Source: Thermodesulfobacteriota bacterium (GTDB taxonomy: Bacteria > Desulfobacterota > Desulfomonilia > UBA1062). Taken from it: a stretch of DNA of 64,000 nucleotides. Positions 83-11,689 of this stretch are shown here, in pieces. A model generated the notes under the pieces. It did no database searches. It was given only the letters and a program-made list of their open reading frames with translations, and was not told the DNA's origin. The stretch is from NCBI GenBank assembly GCA_036834365.1, contig DAITOA010000013.1:141-64140 (forward strand). The letters are read 5' to 3'. The translations under genes and the position numbers were made by a program. Numbering within the stretch: position 1 is the stretch's first letter; each line of letters starts with the position of its first letter.

Positions 83-167
83 TGGTGGAGGGGGGAGGAT
101 TCGAACCTCCGTAGGCTTCGCCGGCAGATTTACAGTCTGCTCCCTTTGGCCGCTCGGGAACCCCTCC
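83..167 (-). tRNA. tRNA-Tyr (anticodon GTA), 85 nt with long variable arm and encoded CCA
   Basis: Reverse complement reads GGAGGGG...CAGACUGUAAAUCUG...GGUUCGAAUCC...CCCCUCCACCA. The 7-bp acceptor stem pairs, the T-loop is GTTCGAATC and the anticodon loop is CUGUAAA. Confidence 0.85.
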
Positions 168-181
168 CGAAATATCTCTCA

Positions 182-257
182 TGGAGCTGGAGATGGGACT
201 CGAACCCGCAACCTGCTGATTACAAATCAGCTGCTCTACCGATTGAGCTACTCCAGC
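182..257 (-). tRNA. tRNA-Thr (anticodon TGT), 76 nt with encoded CCA
   Basis: Reverse complement reads GCUGGAGUAGCUCA...GCUGAUUUGUAAUCAGC...GGUUCGAGUCC...CUCCAGCUCCA. The acceptor stem GCUGGAG/CUCCAGC pairs and the anticodon loop is UUUGUAA. Confidence 0.85.
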
Positions 258-3323: not shown

Positions 3324-4393
3324 TAACGATTCTGGCTTTCATCATCGTACTCGGCGTGCTGATCTTCTTCCACGAGCTTGGCCACTTCATCGTGGCCAAG
3401 GCGAGCGGCGTGGGAGTCCTGAAGTTCTCCCTGGGCTTCGGCCCCGCCCTGCTGAGGAAGAGGATCGGCGAAACCCAGTACCAGGTGGCGGCATTCCCGC
3501 TGGGCGGCTACGTGAAGATGCTGGGCGAGGACCCTGACGACAAGGACCAGCTCACCCATATCGACCCCAAGCGGTCCTTTTCGCACAAGCCGCTTCCCAT
3601 CAAGGCGGCGATCGTCTTTGCCGGCCCCTTCTTCAACTTCATACTGGCGGTGGTCGTCTATACCGTCATCGCATGGGTGGGTGTTCCCTACCTCCTGCCC
3701 GTGGTCGGCGAGGTTCAGAAGGCCTCCCCGGCCGACAAGGCGGGGATGCTCGCCGGTGACATGATCCGGACCATCGGAAAGAAACCGGTTCAGGGCTGGG
3801 ACGATGTGGCGGCGGTGCTCCAGGAAACAGGGGCGGCCAAGGGGGTCGAGATCGAGGTCCTGCGCGAAGGCAAGGTCTTCGTCCTCCATGTGACACCGAC
3901 CATGAACAAGGCGAAGAACCTCTTCGGCGAGGAGATCAGCCGCCCCATGATCGGGATCGCGGTGGGAGACGTCACGGCGGTCAAGCGCTACGGCCCCATC
4001 AGCGGCATCGGATACGGGTTCTCCCAGTGCTACCACATCGTGGAGCTCACGGGTGTCGCCTTCGCCAAGATGATCAAAGGCTCCATCAGCGTCAAGGAGA
4101 GCCTGGGCGGCCCCATCCTCATCGCCCAGGTCTCGGGGCAGACCTTCAAGGCGGGACTGCTGCCCTTCGTCTCCCTGATCGCCTTCATCAGCATCAACCT
4201 GGCCATCATCAACCTGCTGCCCATCCCCGTCCTGGACGGCGGACACATCCTGCTCTTCCTCATCGAGGGCGTCACCGGCAAGCCGGTGGAGGGCAAGCCA
4301 CGCGAGATCGCCCAGCAGATCGGGCTCTTCATCCTCATCATGCTCATGCTCTTCGCCTTCTACAACGACATCGTGCGTATCTTCAAGGGATGA
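3320..4393 (+). CDS. rseP: RIP site-2 metalloprotease (RseP/YaeL family)
   Basis: HELGHF zinc motif near the N-terminus, a PDZ-like middle region and the C-terminal LLPIPVLDGGH(I) motif. 4-nt overlap with dxr. Confidence 0.85.
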   Translation: MITILAFIIVLGVLIFFHELGHFIVAKASGVGVLKFSLGFGPALLRKRIGETQYQVAAFPLGGYVKMLGEDPDDKDQLTHIDPKRSFSHKPLPIKAAIVFAGPFFNFILAVVVYTVIAWVGVPYLLPVVGEVQKASPADKAGMLAGDMIRTIGKKPVQGWDDVAAVLQETGAAKGVEIEVLREGKVFVLHVTPTMNKAKNLFGEEISRPMIGIAVGDVTAVKRYGPISGIGYGFSQCYHIVELTGVAFAKMIKGSISVKESLGGPILIAQVSGQTFKAGLLPFVSLIAFISINLAIINLLPIPVLDGGHILLFLIEGVTGKPVEGKPREIAQQIGLFILIMLMLFAFYNDIVRIFKG

Positions 4394-7004: not shown

Positions 7005-7937
7005 ATGGGCACCAAACCAAAGAAGACAGGCAGGGCTTATATCTTCTATATCGCCTGTGTCGTGATGGCGCCGGTTCTGGTATGCGGGTGCAGTCGATTT
7101 CAGACCGGGTCAACCTTCAAGGAAGCGAATGAACTTTTCGGCCAGGGAGACTACGAGGCATCTCTGAAAACATATGAAGGAATCATTGAAAGGCATCCCT
7201 CGGCGGGAGACCGGGTTCTTTTCGAGATGGGGATCATTTACTCGTATCCCAGGAACGAGCAGAAAGACTACCGGAAATCTTTGGAGTGTTTTCAGGAACT
7301 CATAAAGAATTATCCCGAGAGCAGTTACAGATATGACAGTGAGAGGATGATCTTTCATATACAGAATGTCGTCCTGAAGGATCAGCGGATAGCCGAGCAG
7401 CAGACACTGATGGAGACTCTCCAACAGGAGCTTGAAAGCAAAGGGAATGAGATTGCTGCACTGCGGGAAGAAATTGAAGAGCTCCACCGGAAGGTCTCTT
7501 CACTGGAGCCGGGGCCGGCAGACAAGATCCTCATAGAGAAGAAAGAACGGAGATTGTCACTGATGGCAAAGGGCAGTGTCTTCAGGACCTACAAGATAGC
7601 CTTGGGGGGAAACCCGAATGGTCCGAAGGTAAGGCAGGGAGACAACAAAACCCCGGAAGGGACCTACATCATCGACTCAAGGAATATGGACAGCCGCTAC
7701 CACATCTCTCTTCACATTTCATATCCCAACGAGAGAGACAAACAACGGGCGAAAAAACTGGGCGTCCTGCCGGGCGGAGACATCATGATTCACGGCATCA
7801 AGAACGGATTTTCCATGGTCGGCGGACTGCATGCCGGGTCTGACTGGACGAAAGGGTGCATTGCCGTCACGGACGAAGAGATAGAAGAGATTGAAATGCT
7901 GGCCCCGAACGGTACGATTGTCGAGATAAGGCCATAG
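7005..7937 (+). CDS. Lipoprotein L,D-transpeptidase (YkuD/ErfK domain) with N-terminal TPR-like and coiled-coil regions
   Basis: AAGGAG RBS, signal peptide and lipobox (LVCGC). The YkuD catalytic domain has the conserved HG and active-site GCIA(V) motifs (YKIALGG...IMIHG...TKGCIAV). Lower GC than flanks. Confidence 0.75.
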   Translation: MGTKPKKTGRAYIFYIACVVMAPVLVCGCSRFQTGSTFKEANELFGQGDYEASLKTYEGIIERHPSAGDRVLFEMGIIYSYPRNEQKDYRKSLECFQELIKNYPESSYRYDSERMIFHIQNVVLKDQRIAEQQTLMETLQQELESKGNEIAALREEIEELHRKVSSLEPGPADKILIEKKERRLSLMAKGSVFRTYKIALGGNPNGPKVRQGDNKTPEGTYIIDSRNMDSRYHISLHISYPNERDKQRAKKLGVLPGGDIMIHGIKNGFSMVGGLHAGSDWTKGCIAVTDEEIEEIEMLAPNGTIVEIRP

Positions 7938-7957: not shown

Positions 7958-9274
7958 ATGTGCAGAACGGTTGAACGCCCGATCCCATCCGGAAGGTTTC
8001 ATCTCATCGTCTTGTGCATACTCGTCTCATATCTCCAGGGATGTGCCGTAATGAACAGTATTCAGAAGATATCATCACCTTTCCCCGTCTATCCGGAAAA
8101 CCAGCTGGAACGGAACACGTTTTCGGTTGTGAAAGGAAGTGACGTCATCGGCCGGATGGCGATCATCAGGCTTGAAGAGGGCGATACCCTTCCGGACATC
8201 GCCCGGCACTTCAGCCTGGGAATCAATGCGGTCAATGCGGCCAATCCAGGGGTGGATGTGTGGGTACCTGATGCAGGAGGGCGTATCGTGCTGCCGCTGC
8301 GGTTCATTCTGCCGGATGCACCCAGAAAGGGTATCGTGATCAACCTGGCTGCCATGAGGCTCTTTCACTATAAAGGAGACAACGACGCACTCGTTGTGAC
8401 CACGTACCCGGTCGGCGTCGGCACCACGGAGCGACCCACCCCCACAGGCCAGATGCAGGTGGTGCGCAAGGTGACCCGGCCGACCTGGTATGTGCCCGCC
8501 TCCATTGCCGAGGATCATCGAAAAAAGGGAGATCCGCTTCCCGCTGCAGTTCTGCCGGGACCCCAGAATCCCCTGGGAGAATACGCGCTCTATCTGAGCA
8601 AGGCGAGTTATCTGATCCATGGCACCAATAAGCCGGCCAGCATCGGCCTGAATGCAACCAACGGCTGCCTGAGACTCTACCCGGAAGACGTGAAAAGGCT
8701 CTACGAGAATACGCCGGTTCACACACCCGTATGCATCGTCAACCAGCCATACCTCATAGGCCAGCGGAACGGGATCGTTTACATGGAGGTCCATGCGTCC
8801 CCGGAAGGCTCAGGGGCCGATGAGCTGGAAAAGATGTACAACAAGTTGAGAACCATTGAGAAGGTCTCCGGGCGTACGCTCGACTGGAAGAATATCGAGA
8901 GGACACTGTCGGAAGCCCGGGGGATTCCTGTGCCCATCCTGGAGATGGAACAGGGGAGATGGTTTGAGCCGACCATCGAAGTGATGCACCCGGGCACATT
9001 ATACGGGAGACCGGAAATTCCGGAATTGAACGCGGAGGCATGGTATGTCTGGGCTGCCGACCTGAACGATAGGACCGAAGCCTTGCGGATTGCCGCCATC
9101 ATTAGCCATCAGGGCCCGCCAATACCGGCACGTGTGATATCAAGGAGCAATGGCTACCGTGTCATCGCCGGCCCCTACAACGATATAAGCGAGGCCAAAG
9201 ATACGGTCAAACGACTGAAGATCGATCTGGAGATAGACGGTATCGTGATCGAACCCGCCGCGAAGCACCCCTGA
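7958..9274 (+). CDS. LysM + YkuD L,D-transpeptidase with C-terminal SPOR domain (lipoprotein signal)
   Basis: Lipobox YLQGC and a LysM-like segment (EEGDTLPDIARHFSLGINAVNAANPG). The YkuD domain carries LIHGTN...NGCLRL. The C-terminal ~75 aa is a SPOR-like fold (RVISRSNGYRVIAGPY...AKD). Confidence 0.75.
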   Translation: MCRTVERPIPSGRFHLIVLCILVSYLQGCAVMNSIQKISSPFPVYPENQLERNTFSVVKGSDVIGRMAIIRLEEGDTLPDIARHFSLGINAVNAANPGVDVWVPDAGGRIVLPLRFILPDAPRKGIVINLAAMRLFHYKGDNDALVVTTYPVGVGTTERPTPTGQMQVVRKVTRPTWYVPASIAEDHRKKGDPLPAAVLPGPQNPLGEYALYLSKASYLIHGTNKPASIGLNATNGCLRLYPEDVKRLYENTPVHTPVCIVNQPYLIGQRNGIVYMEVHASPEGSGADELEKMYNKLRTIEKVSGRTLDWKNIERTLSEARGIPVPILEMEQGRWFEPTIEVMHPGTLYGRPEIPELNAEAWYVWAADLNDRTEALRIAAIISHQGPPIPARVISRSNGYRVIAGPYNDISEAKDTVKRLKIDLEIDGIVIEPAAKHP

Positions 9275-9530
9275 TCAGGTTACAAAAAAGGTGCCGCTGT
9301 GTACGAACTTGTACATCTCTCAAAGGTCATGAATGGAAATTAACGTCCAATCGTGTAATATGTACGCGTCATACGTGTTGGCCTGCATATTGCTGTAAGA
9401 ATATCATGCAATTATTATATGAGAAGCCATGATAATGAAACCATTACCCCCGAAACAATCAATGACCCGGGGGGTAGACAGGCTCAGTTCGTTATCAAAC
9501 AATCCAAGCTGAATAGAACGGAGGTAAGGA

Positions 9531-9832
9531 TGAAAAAGATTCTATTGGGGATTTCCATGGTGATGGTACTCGCTCTCGGCATGTGGGGCTGCGCGACGAC
9601 CAGCGATATCGAGAGGGTCCAGGCGCAGGAAAAGGCGATCGATGCGAAAGCCGATCAGGCCATTCTGGATGCTCAGGCTGCCAAGGCGGCGGCTCAAGAG
9701 GCCCAGGCGAAGGCAGATGCCGCCACCGCCCGTGCCGAAGAAGCCGTGAGGAAGGCAGAGGAGAGGGAGCGGGCTGCGGAGGAGAAGCAGCAGCAGGCTG
9801 AAGCCCTTTTCCAGAAATCGATGAAGAAGTAA
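9531..9832 (+). CDS. Small Ala/Gln/Glu-rich coiled-coil (lipo)protein with C-terminal Lys-Lys; Braun-lipoprotein (Lpp)-like
   Basis: GGAGGT RBS 7 nt upstream. Signal peptide MKKILLGISMVMVLALGMWGC with a lipobox-like Cys, then ~75 aa of heptad-like Ala-rich helix, ending ...FQKSMKK. The longer ORF-track start (9419) lacks an RBS and signal logic. Confidence 0.6.
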
Positions 9833-9884
9833 GTCGGTATTTCAGATACACGCACCCATATCTTCATCTTCAAGGCTTCGACAG

Positions 9885-9917
9885 AGAAGTGGCCGGGTCT
9901 GAGACCCTGCCACTTCT
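9885..9917. terminator. Near-perfect 33-nt palindrome (nested hairpin) between convergent genes; likely bidirectional intrinsic terminator
   Basis: The sequence agaagtggccgggtctgagaccctgccacttct is self-complementary apart from a central loop and one mismatch. It is followed by a T-containing tract and lies between the 3' ends of the Lpp-like gene and the sulfatase gene. Confidence 0.45.
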
Positions 9918-9946
9918 TCCTTATAAACCCGACACGTACCCAGCCC

Positions 9947-11689
9947 TCAGTCCAGATCGAACCGATGGTTGAATGCCAGGAACCTCAGCCAGCTCCCCTG
10001 AACCTTGAGCTTGCCCGAGGCCAGGGCCGCCAGCGGGGTCGTCACCTTGGCCGCCATCTTCCGGTAGGTCAGGGCGTCCACGACGAGCGTGGCTACGGGC
10101 TCGGGCGTCCCGGGCAGCGGGTCCCCCTGAACCACCTCGGCGATACCGTTGCGCACTGTCACGATGAAGCGTCTCTGCTCGTCCGGGAACACGTAATACA
10201 CCGTCTCGTGCACGTCCATGGCCCTTTCCGGCACGAGCCTCGCAGCCATGATGGTGAAGATGGCATCCAGCGGGATATTGGCCACGACGTTCTCGTCCAG
10301 CCTTGCCTGGGCGGGCTTCTCGATGCCGTGCCGGATCTCGTAGGCAGATTCCAGGAGATAGCCCCGGCCGTTGAGGTTGTACAGGGTGGATGCCAGCCCC
10401 TCGTAGCCCCCGGCGAGCTTTTCGTCCAGTTTCCCCTTGAGGCTCCCGGTGGCCAGTCCGCTGTCCCTGAGCTTGGTGAGCAGGTGGATGGCCCAGCGGA
10501 AATCGCCGGTCGTCAGTGCTGCATCGGAGAGCTTCATGACCTGGTCGGCCCCGCCCATGAGCCTGACCTCCCTGCCCGCCGCATCACTGACCTTCATGGG
10601 GTAGAGCTTCTCCGGCCTCCCATCGAACCAGCCCAGGTTGTTGGTGTACACGGCCCGTGCGGACCAGTCCACCTGGCCGTAGAACTCGGTGGTGTAGGGG
10701 AGCCCGGCGAGGTGCGGCGGCAGCGTGACGGTCTCCGCTATGGCGTCCATGTCATACCCCATGTTCGCCAGCCTGACGGTCTCGTCCCTGACCCACTGGA
10801 TGGCGTCCCGGTAGTTGGTCAGGACCTCTGCAATATTCTGCGCACCGTGGACAGGCACGGTATGGCAGGGTACCAGGTGCTCGGGGTTCAGGGCACGCAT
10901 CTCGTCCAGGCTTTTGATCCATCCGTCGATGGGCCTCGGGCTGGCGCCGCGGATGGTGTAGAGGTTCGGGAAGGTCCAGTAGAAATTGTCGGCAGCGATC
11001 ACGGTCCGGTCCTGCGGTACCCAGATGACGAGCTGGTCGTGGGTCTCACCGGGCGCCTCGATGAGCCGGATCTCCAGCCCGCCGAAGACCAGGGTCTTTG
11101 TCCCGGAGAAGGTATTTGTGGGCAGGCGGATGCCCGCGCCCTCCTGGGCGGCCCTGATGTCGGTGCGCCTGCCGATGCCGTTACAGGGCAGGTCATCCAG
11201 GGAGACGTGATCCCCGAACTGACGCCTGCCGCGGATGGTCTCGATGGGCAGGAAGAGCTGGTACTGCTTGTAGAAATGGTCCGTAAAGGTGTCCGTGGCC
11301 CAGATCTGCGGCCTGTCCTCCATCCAGAGGGACGCACCCCCGATGTGGTCTATGTGACTGTGGGTGTAGATGACGGCTTTGACCGGTCCTGCCGGGACGT
11401 TCGCGAGGAGGTCCCGCTTAGCCGCCTCTCCCCTCTTCGGGCTCATGAGGGGGTCCACGATGACGGAGCCCTCGGGGGTATGGATGAGGATCTCGTTGGC
11501 CAGGTCATACCCGACGGCGGCCCACACGTGCTCGGAGATCCGCTCGATGCGTGGCTCTCCGATGAGTTCGCACTGCCTCCTGAGGAGGTCAGGACCTGGC
11601 AGGGCGTCCCTGATCTGCCGGGCCCCGGGTGAACAGCCGATACTCAGTGCAAGGGAAAGGATCAGGACGGTCAGGGAATGCCTTTTCAT
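9947..11689 (-). CDS. Alkyl/aryl-sulfatase of the metallo-beta-lactamase fold (SdsA1/BDS1-like), lipoprotein signal
   Basis: Signal peptide plus Cys (SIGCSP). MBL motif HSHIDHIGG, a long dimerisation region and a C-terminal SCP2-like domain. 580 aa. Confidence 0.75.
   Translation of the reverse strand: MKRHSLTVLILSLALSIGCSPGARQIRDALPGPDLLRRQCELIGEPRIERISEHVWAAVGYDLANEILIHTPEGSVIVDPLMSPKRGEAAKRDLLANVPAGPVKAVIYTHSHIDHIGGASLWMEDRPQIWATDTFTDHFYKQYQLFLPIETIRGRRQFGDHVSLDDLPCNGIGRRTDIRAAQEGAGIRLPTNTFSGTKTLVFGGLEIRLIEAPGETHDQLVIWVPQDRTVIAADNFYWTFPNLYTIRGASPRPIDGWIKSLDEMRALNPEHLVPCHTVPVHGAQNIAEVLTNYRDAIQWVRDETVRLANMGYDMDAIAETVTLPPHLAGLPYTTEFYGQVDWSARAVYTNNLGWFDGRPEKLYPMKVSDAAGREVRLMGGADQVMKLSDAALTTGDFRWAIHLLTKLRDSGLATGSLKGKLDEKLAGGYEGLASTLYNLNGRGYLLESAYEIRHGIEKPAQARLDENVVANIPLDAIFTIMAARLVPERAMDVHETVYYVFPDEQRRFIVTVRNGIAEVVQGDPLPGTPEPVATLVVDALTYRKMAAKVTTPLAALASGKLKVQGSWLRFLAFNHRFDLD

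Follow-up and report, generated by a model that had tools for sequence, protein, structure and literature searches.

Is the short open reading frame near 9.5 kb of this DNA a true relative of the E. coli lipoprotein Lpp, and if so, is it likely to be a tether between outer membrane and cell wall? We examined the window (the whole 64-kb stretch of DNA that was analyzed) together with homologs of this gene and their neighbors in other genomes. A preliminary description, made from the letters of the DNA, had proposed either a diverged analog of Lpp that was missed by annotation or an unrelated periplasmic coiled-coil protein. The gene, which we call lpp, has these features:

9520-9524, + strand: Shine-Dalgarno sequence GGAGG, 5 nt before the ATG (read from the sequence)
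9530-9832, + strand: lpp/oprI-family gene, encoding a precursor of 100 amino acids, with its stop codon at 9830-9832
9530-9589, + strand: signal peptide, residues 1-20
9584-9586 and 9590-9592, + strand: codons for Trp19 (position -2) and Cys21 in the lipobox M18-W19-G20-C21
9827-9829, + strand: codon for Lys100, the C-terminus of the mature chain of 80 amino acids

The open reading frame is real. Its product (MKKILLGISMVMVLALGMWGC-ATTSD...FQKSMKK) has 334 homologs at E ≤ 1e-3, which, together with the curated family thresholds that it passes, is more than chance would give. The gene had been placed at 9531-9832; the reading frame stands, but this start is one base late, as the ATG is at 9530 and the frame from 9531 runs into stop codons. 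Both of the peptide strings that were quoted for it are exact. A purine-rich GGAGG or GGGGG is conserved at equal spacing in 9 relatives. We considered a longer in-frame reading frame from 9419 and rejected it: the sequence upstream diverges among the relatives, while the Shine-Dalgarno sequence and the ATG are conserved.

We are nearly certain that the product (window Lpp) belongs to the Lpp/OprI family. It scores 63 bits against the NCBIfam model for Lpp/OprI alanine-zipper lipoproteins (NF040598; residues 6-100; cutoff 43 bits) and 43.7 bits against Pfam's model for an alanine-zipper major outer membrane lipoprotein (PF11839, Alanine_zipper; curated cutoff 23.1 bits). For calibration, OprI from Pseudomonas aeruginosa scores 44.8 bits on PF11839, while for E. 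coli Lpp the scores are 89.5 bits on PF04728 (Braun Lpp) but only 20.6 bits on PF11839. Window Lpp had no match to PF04728 at E ≤ 1, and it scored 19.5 bits against the model for Braun lipoprotein sensu stricto (NF011925), below the cutoff of 108. Because the PF11839 score is like that of OprI and PF04728 does not match, window Lpp is of the OprI type and not of the Braun-Lpp type, at the level of Pfam.

The gene was not missed by annotation: an identical protein, from a deltaproteobacterial MAG, is already in NCBI as "Lpp/OprI family alanine-zipper lipoprotein." JGI's name for relatives of window Lpp is "murein lipoprotein." The proposed likeness to Lpp is borne out by both family models and also by profile-profile alignment, as hhalign gave a probability of 93% for the match to E. 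coli Lpp, which extends across 60 columns and keeps its register from Met1 up to and including the lipidated Cys. With OprI, hhalign aligned just the 20-residue region of the signal peptide and lipobox. Starting at the lipidated Cys, a profile built from 20 homologs also aligned in register with Lpp chains in the PDB, where its best match was a variant of Lpp-56 (E = 0.007); searching the PDB with the single sequence (phmmer) gave only marginal matches to Lpp-56 (E = 0.14). We used the family models instead of pairwise profile alignment because a low-complexity helix of Ala, Glu, and Lys defeats the latter.

A single heptad register runs through the whole mature chain, from Ile27 to Lys100. 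The residues at the a and d positions are I V E I A A A A A A A A A A A R A K A L S K, and 17 of these 22 are core-type residues (Ala, Ile, Val, or Leu). Comparison with the sequence of E. coli Lpp shows that the architecture and, counting from the Cys, the register are identical (I7, L10, and so on in Lpp correspond to I27, V30, and so on in window Lpp). In the AlphaFold2 (AF2) model, one continuous helix covers residues 2-99, with pLDDT of 82-94 over residues 31-100. By analogy with the crystal structures of Lpp-56, window Lpp is probably a parallel homotrimer. Each residue of a coiled coil adds ~0.148 nm, so the ~76 helical residues correspond to a span of ~11 nm; Lpp-56 spans ~8 nm.

Window Lpp also differs from both E. 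coli Lpp and OprI. Its core is almost all Ala, whereas that of E. coli Lpp is Leu, Val, and Met; it is 22 residues longer than E. coli Lpp, which is roughly the length of the engineered Lpp+21; and it ends in Lys-Lys instead of Arg-Lys. OprI from P. aeruginosa is in the same Pfam and NCBIfam family and shares the Ala-rich heptad core and the C-terminal basic residue followed by Lys, but its mature chain has 64 amino acids instead of 80.

On its own, a gene of this kind is routine, and the interest lies in the genes around it. In the window, lpp follows two genes with YkuD domains, which we call LDT1 and LDT2, and it converges with a gene for an alkyl sulfatase:

7005-7937, + strand: LDT1 (Pfam matches to YkuD and TPR), with lipobox LVCG-C29, TPR-like helices at about residues 50-102, a stalk helix at about residues 109-167, and a DpaA/YafK-like YkuD domain
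7857-7859, + strand: codon for Cys285 of LDT1, which with His263 makes up the catalytic residues (motif TKGCIAV)
7958-9274, + strand: LDT2 (Pfam matches to YkuD and SPOR), with a lipobox-like LQG-C29, a YkuD domain of the ErfK/YbiS/LdtPae2 type, and a C-terminal SPOR domain
8666-8668, + strand: codon for Cys237 of LDT2, which with His221 makes up the catalytic residues (motif TNGCLRL)
9947-11689, - strand: gene for an alkyl sulfatase, the other neighbor of the cassette

We scanned one genome per GTDB species and found the Lpp/OprI lipoprotein in 217 species representatives of the Desulfobacterota and Nitrospirota. The carriers include Geobacter, Pelotalea, Oryzomonas, Syntrophus, Smithella, Syntrophorhabdus, Desulfobacterales, Desulfobulbus, and MAGs of Nitrospirota. 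We retained 80 loci and counted gene neighbors in the 63 whose flanks are complete. In every one of these 63 loci, which come from both phyla, lpp and the two YkuD genes are neighbors on the same strand. The order is LDT2-lpp-LDT1 in 45 loci, LDT1-LDT2-lpp (as in the window) in 17, and lpp-LDT1-LDT2 in 1, and the genes outside the trio differ between loci. Because the linkage survives rearrangement across two phyla, we argue that lpp, LDT1, and LDT2 form a functional unit.

A few loci are worth describing individually. In the genome that carries P0034, an abundant relative, the cassette (L005-L008, 6460-11651) is immediately next to the elongasome operon rodA-pbp2-mreD-mreC-mreB. A Syntrophus MAG has a second copy of the lpp/oprI family, in divergent orientation, (L041, 3889-4185, - strand) about 1.8 kb upstream of the copy in the cassette. 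At another locus (L093, 2026-3731), LDT2 and the lpp homolog are fragmented, with a shift of frame at the C-terminus. The damage most likely reflects an error in a long-read assembly rather than a pseudogene, and we excluded the locus from our statistics because frameshifts break its genes.

LDT2 resembles the enzymes that attach Lpp. Its motif TNGCLRL is of the transpeptidase type ([S/T]xGChR, with the Arg that is typical of transpeptidases), and [ST]xGC[ILMV]RL is found in about 75 of 77 LDT2 sequences. Its best NCBIfam matches are to models of the LdtE/YcfS/YbiS type, although its score is far below the equivalog cutoff (174 against 480). Within the ErfK type, members that anchor Lpp and members that form 3-3 cross-links cannot be separated by sequence (PMC10434034). 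The best match of LDT2 in the PDB is an L,D-transpeptidase from P. aeruginosa (9tyw, E = 1.6e-64; 41% identity over 276 amino acids), whose gene is convergent with oprI and lies 123 bp from it. P. aeruginosa has three L,D-transpeptidases, and LdtPae2 is the only ErfK-like one and anchors OprI to peptidoglycan (PMC10434034), so the 9tyw protein is very probably LdtPae2. LDT2 joins a SPOR domain to an L,D-transpeptidase of the ErfK type, a fusion that is absent from the E. coli and Pseudomonas enzymes. Public gene calls disagree about the start of LDT2 (438 or 407 amino acids), and of these the longer, 438-residue form alone has a signal peptide together with L-[QHSNPY]-G-C-A, which is lipobox-like and conserved.

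LDT1 resembles DpaA, which hydrolyzes the bond between Lpp and the wall. Its motif, TxGCIA, is of the hydrolase type as in DpaA, and TxGCIAV was found in 71 of the 74 LDT1 motifs that we recovered. Ala at the second position after the Cys distinguishes DpaA, a hydrolase, from transpeptidases (10.1101/2021.02.21.432140; PMC10653827). Of the YkuD-family entries in the PDB, E. coli DpaA (8ikr) matches best by sequence (E = 2.4e-8), and it is also the top Foldseek match (E = 1.8e-6, 30% identity), for which the catalytic domain of the AF2 model is of only moderate confidence. The equivalog model for LdtF/DpaA/YafK (NF040599, LdtF_DpaA_YafK) is the best NCBIfam match, but it covers the YkuD core only, and LDT1 reaches 44.4 bits on it where the cutoff is 365. 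In comparison to the residues described for DpaA (PMC10653827), LDT1 retains the equivalents of K83, Q86, R108, Y109, and M133 (in GPKVRQGD, DSRY, and IMIHG) and lacks those of K130 and Y131, and its loop between the His and the Cys is longer. Its stalk is a single long helix of 59 residues, and its lipobox is conserved across loci as L-x-[CSG]-G-C-S.

These similarities suggest how the cassette might work. The precursor of Lpp would be exported, lipidated on Cys21, and cut by signal peptidase II. The mature chain of 80 residues would form an uninterrupted parallel coiled coil with an Ala core, probably a trimer as in Lpp, that reaches across ~11 nm. We think that window Lpp is probably a covalent tether from the outer membrane to peptidoglycan that would set the spacing between them, with attachment, through a bond of its C-terminal Lys to mDAP, predicted from the conserved neighboring LDT genes. 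With a little less confidence, we favor LDT2 as the enzyme that would attach Lpp and LDT1 as the enzyme that would release it, with the directions of the two reactions read from motifs and best matches. LDT1 would be a DpaA-like enzyme, anchored in the outer membrane and raised on its helical stalk, that most likely hydrolyzes the bond between Lpp and the wall. Release by LDT1 would keep bound and free Lpp in balance.

Enzyme types for attaching and detaching are also present in E. coli (LdtA-C and DpaA), but those enzymes are soluble and their genes are not linked to lpp. In P. aeruginosa, as in the window, an ErfK-type L,D-transpeptidase gene adjoins the lipoprotein gene, and the genome encodes one anchoring L,D-transpeptidase with the Arg motif and one YafK-like enzyme with the Ala motif (LdtPae2 and LdtPae3; PMC10434034). 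In Pseudomonas, however, the L,D-transpeptidase gene is convergent with oprI and the YafK-like gene is elsewhere, while in the window the three genes are co-oriented neighbors. Also, the predicted anchoring enzyme of the window, LDT2, has both a SPOR domain and a lipobox, and its YafK-like counterpart, LDT1, has a lipobox, TPRs, and a long stalk. The phyla differ as well (Desulfobacterota and Nitrospirota).

The length of Lpp varies among species by whole heptads. Among the 80 species loci, the mature chain has 73 residues in 2 species, 80 in 43, 87 in 18, 94 in 10, and 101 in 2, which accounts for 75 loci. Only five species are off this series (69, 76, 76, 95, and 102 residues). Two loci outside of the 80 (L091 and L092) have mature chains of 122 residues; in L091, the lpp gene is at 3328-3759. 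The added heptads are repeats of the EEKAK or ERIAE type and are placed ahead of the conserved C-terminal FQKSMKK. The quantization of the mature length by heptads, from 73 to 122 residues, is apparently new. For several of the long variants (107-143 amino acids), the precomputed Pfam field is "-". When we scanned three of the long variants directly (115, 122, and 143 amino acids), all three passed both PF11839 and NF040598.

The stalk of LDT1 also varies, by insertion of coiled-coil repeats (loci L009-L099). We measured the stalk as the distance from the Cys of LDT1 to its YkuD domain. Across an unbiased set of 67 loci, this distance is correlated with the length of Lpp (Spearman correlation = 0.37). 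We added eight LDT1 proteins with long stalks, which were picked blind to their neighbors, and all eight turned out to be next to tethers of 87-122 residues. Stalks of 160-170 residues pair with tethers of 87-101 residues, and a stalk of 196 pairs with a tether of 122. Across all 75 loci, including the eight that were picked for their long stalks, the Pearson correlation is 0.79 and the slope is 0.93.

To control for relatedness, we paired nearest neighbors by the distance between their LDT2 domains, which gave 12 pairs that differ in the length of Lpp. The stalk changed in the same direction as Lpp in 9 pairs, in the opposite direction in 1, and not at all in 2 (P = 0.02). For example, L091 and L099 are 2.5% diverged, and their Lpp proteins differ by 35 residues and their LDT1 stalks by 34. 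As another control, the mature length of LDT2 stays near 411 amino acids and has a Spearman correlation with Lpp length of 0.04. These results, which fall short of a full comparative analysis, are suggestive of a roughly 1:1 co-variation of the LDT1 stalk with the tether, which would apparently be new. If the stalk does change almost residue for residue with the tether, then the active site of LDT1 would stay at the junction of Lpp and peptidoglycan.

Could Lpp and its neighbors do something else? One alternative is that the lipoprotein is a free spacer or surface protein of the outer membrane, without a covalent link, and that the two YkuD enzymes remodel peptidoglycan (by forming 3-3 cross-links and by trimming as L,D-carboxypeptidases), so that the linkage of the genes reflects a shared envelope regulon. 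The ErfK-type enzymes do include cross-linkers such as LdtE, and lineage does not tell function (PMC10434034); the SPOR domain of LDT2 points to binding of peptidoglycan. For LDT1, the missing Arg and the Ala motif are common to DpaA-like enzymes and L,D-carboxypeptidases (10.1101/2021.02.21.432140), and two residues of DpaA (K130 and Y131) are missing. We still consider this alternative unlikely. Across 200 homologs (120 metagenomic homologs and the 80 species loci), the last residue is Lys in every case (120/120 and 80/80), as part of the motif KSM[KR]K. All three genes are neighbors in two phyla and have stayed together through three gene orders. The stalk of LDT1 scales with the length of Lpp while LDT2 does not, a pattern that would be puzzling if LDT1 had no action on Lpp. 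And LDT1 keeps Met133 instead of the Trp that is found in the D-Ala pocket of carboxypeptidases (PMC10653827). The Lys-Lys terminus itself is a proven substrate for L,D-transpeptidases: Lpp from Dickeya dadantii, which also ends in Lys-Lys, is attached by them to mDAP (PMC12274547, PMC12729407), although that protein is of the enterobacterial type (PF04728) and of canonical length.

Another alternative keeps the tether but reverses or changes the roles of the enzymes. LDT1 might attach Lpp while LDT2 makes 3-3 cross-links at the septum, or LDT1 might trim tetrapeptides to tripeptides and so control the number of donor stems to which Lpp can be attached. SPOR domains usually target septal, denuded glycan, and LDT2 carries one. 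Both enzymes score far below the equivalog cutoffs, and assigning roles from motifs amounts to a correlation (PMC10434034, 10.1101/2021.02.21.432140). On the other side, LDT1 lacks the Arg that is present in all characterized transpeptidases and its best match by both structure and sequence is DpaA, while LDT2 has its close similarity to the P. aeruginosa enzyme that is encoded beside oprI. We judge that attachment by LDT1, or trimming by it, is a good deal less probable than attachment by LDT2 and release by LDT1, and is even less probable than a free spacer.

The preliminary description drew attention to the lipobox, as Trp at position -2 is non-canonical. This is factually right: at -2, the PROSITE lipobox pattern (PS51257) allows [LIVMFYSTAGCQ], and Trp is outside of it. 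The signal has an n-region with KK, a hydrophobic core, and then G20-C21. Among the 200 homologs, the Cys is invariant, position -1 is always Gly or Ser (Ser in 5), position +2 is Ala in all or nearly all, and the mature N-terminus is CAT[TSK]. In this comparison of orthologs, neither the Cys nor the C-terminal Lys varies. Two results that had been named beforehand as refuting kinship with Lpp, a lack of any Lpp-like profile match and a C-terminal residue that differs between orthologs, were not seen. The most variable position of the lipobox is -2, which can be W, G, I, V, M, T, A, or L. Trp is found there in 48 of the 120 close relatives and in 9 of the 80 species, including Nitrospirota loci (L046, L048, and L067). 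Unusual residues at -2 are also found in the other proteins of the cassette (Cys in LDT1 and Gln, His, Asn, Pro, or Tyr in LDT2).

Because -2 varies among the orthologs, and because LDT1 and LDT2 have unusual residues there too, we find no support for the idea that the Trp is significant. As judged from these alignments, it is a habit of the clade at a permissive position and does not argue against the predicted lipidation. A soluble periplasmic coiled coil that is unrelated to Lpp, and is cut by signal peptidase I because the Trp blocks Lgt and LspA, would fit with a residue outside of the PROSITE pattern, but it is very improbable given that Gly-Cys-Ala-Thr is invariant (aside from the five Ser) around a freely variable -2, that Trp recurs in separate lineages, that LDT1 and LDT2 tolerate odd residues at the same position, and that window Lpp passes the cutoffs of family models, which span the signal peptide and the Cys.

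The genes around lpp bear on two published generalizations. Two surveys, for which PF04728 was the sole model, confined Lpp and its covalent tethering to some Gammaproteobacteria and concluded that the DpaA-like proteins of deltaproteobacteria have no Lpp substrate (10.1101/2021.05.31.446380; 10.1101/2021.02.21.432140). Here, a putative tether of the OprI type travels with both types of enzyme in every complete locus, in two phyla. Mandela et al. 2022 (PMC8824477) noticed from InterPro that Lpp from Geobacter is unusually long (at least 99 residues), and saw it as an exception. Our Geobacter loci are of the same family, with precursors of 99-100 amino acids that are 59-65% identical to window Lpp. 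That study did not consider gene neighborhoods, while we found the family in 217 species, with mature chains of 69-122 residues and with the cassette of LDT genes conserved. When we searched the literature on Lpp in Geobacter or Desulfobacterota with transpeptidases, and on PF11839, no paper that we found described the cassette. That the protein exists was already known; its breadth, its dedicated enzymes, and its heptad-stepped lengths with a co-varying stalk appear to be new.

More speculatively, the cassette might be a self-contained system for covalent tethering with matched molecular rulers, older and more widespread than the view of Lpp as a "gammaproteobacterial invention" would have it. 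The distance between membrane and wall would then be encoded by the cassette and would differ widely among its carriers. We hold this idea only tentatively, as something short of an even bet. If it is true, then the tether changes by whole heptads as it evolves and covers lengths of 73 to 122 residues, or roughly 11 to 18 nm. The stepped lengths and the co-varying stalk offer a natural evolutionary test of the idea from E. coli Lpp+21 that the length of the tether sets the spacing of the envelope and that the parts that span the envelope must match it (PMC5736177, PMC8824477).

How is lpp expressed? Two features near the gene could be signals for transcription:

9379-9394, + strand: sigma54-type -24/-12 element (TGGCCTGCATATTGCT), 136 nt before the ATG, within the 255-nt leader
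9884-9918: GC-rich, terminator-like hairpin between the convergent genes for lpp and the alkyl sulfatase (RNA folding energy -30 kcal/mol, z = -3.5 relative to shuffled sequences)

The element at 9379-9394 is the only exact match to TGGC-N7-TTGCW on either strand of the 64-kb window, and it is on the correct strand for lpp. The same element is upstream of lpp in 9 of the 80 species loci, while about 0.2 would be expected (the background rate is 0.015 per kb). These species are mainly from the window's clade, with the gene order LDT1-LDT2-lpp. We propose a putative sigma54-type promoter for lpp in this clade, which is apparently new, and whose function we infer from its sequence and position. 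Scans around lpp for sigma70 promoters and for terminators gave results that were no better than for shuffled sequences, and the 255-nt leader had no match in Rfam. The hairpin at 9884-9918 was not listed by the scan for consensus terminators because its T-tract is weak (UUCCUUAU). Across the 64 kb, the only matches from Rfam and ARAGORN are tRNA-Tyr(GTA) and tRNA-Thr(TGT), which are at the left edge of the window (83-257, - strand).
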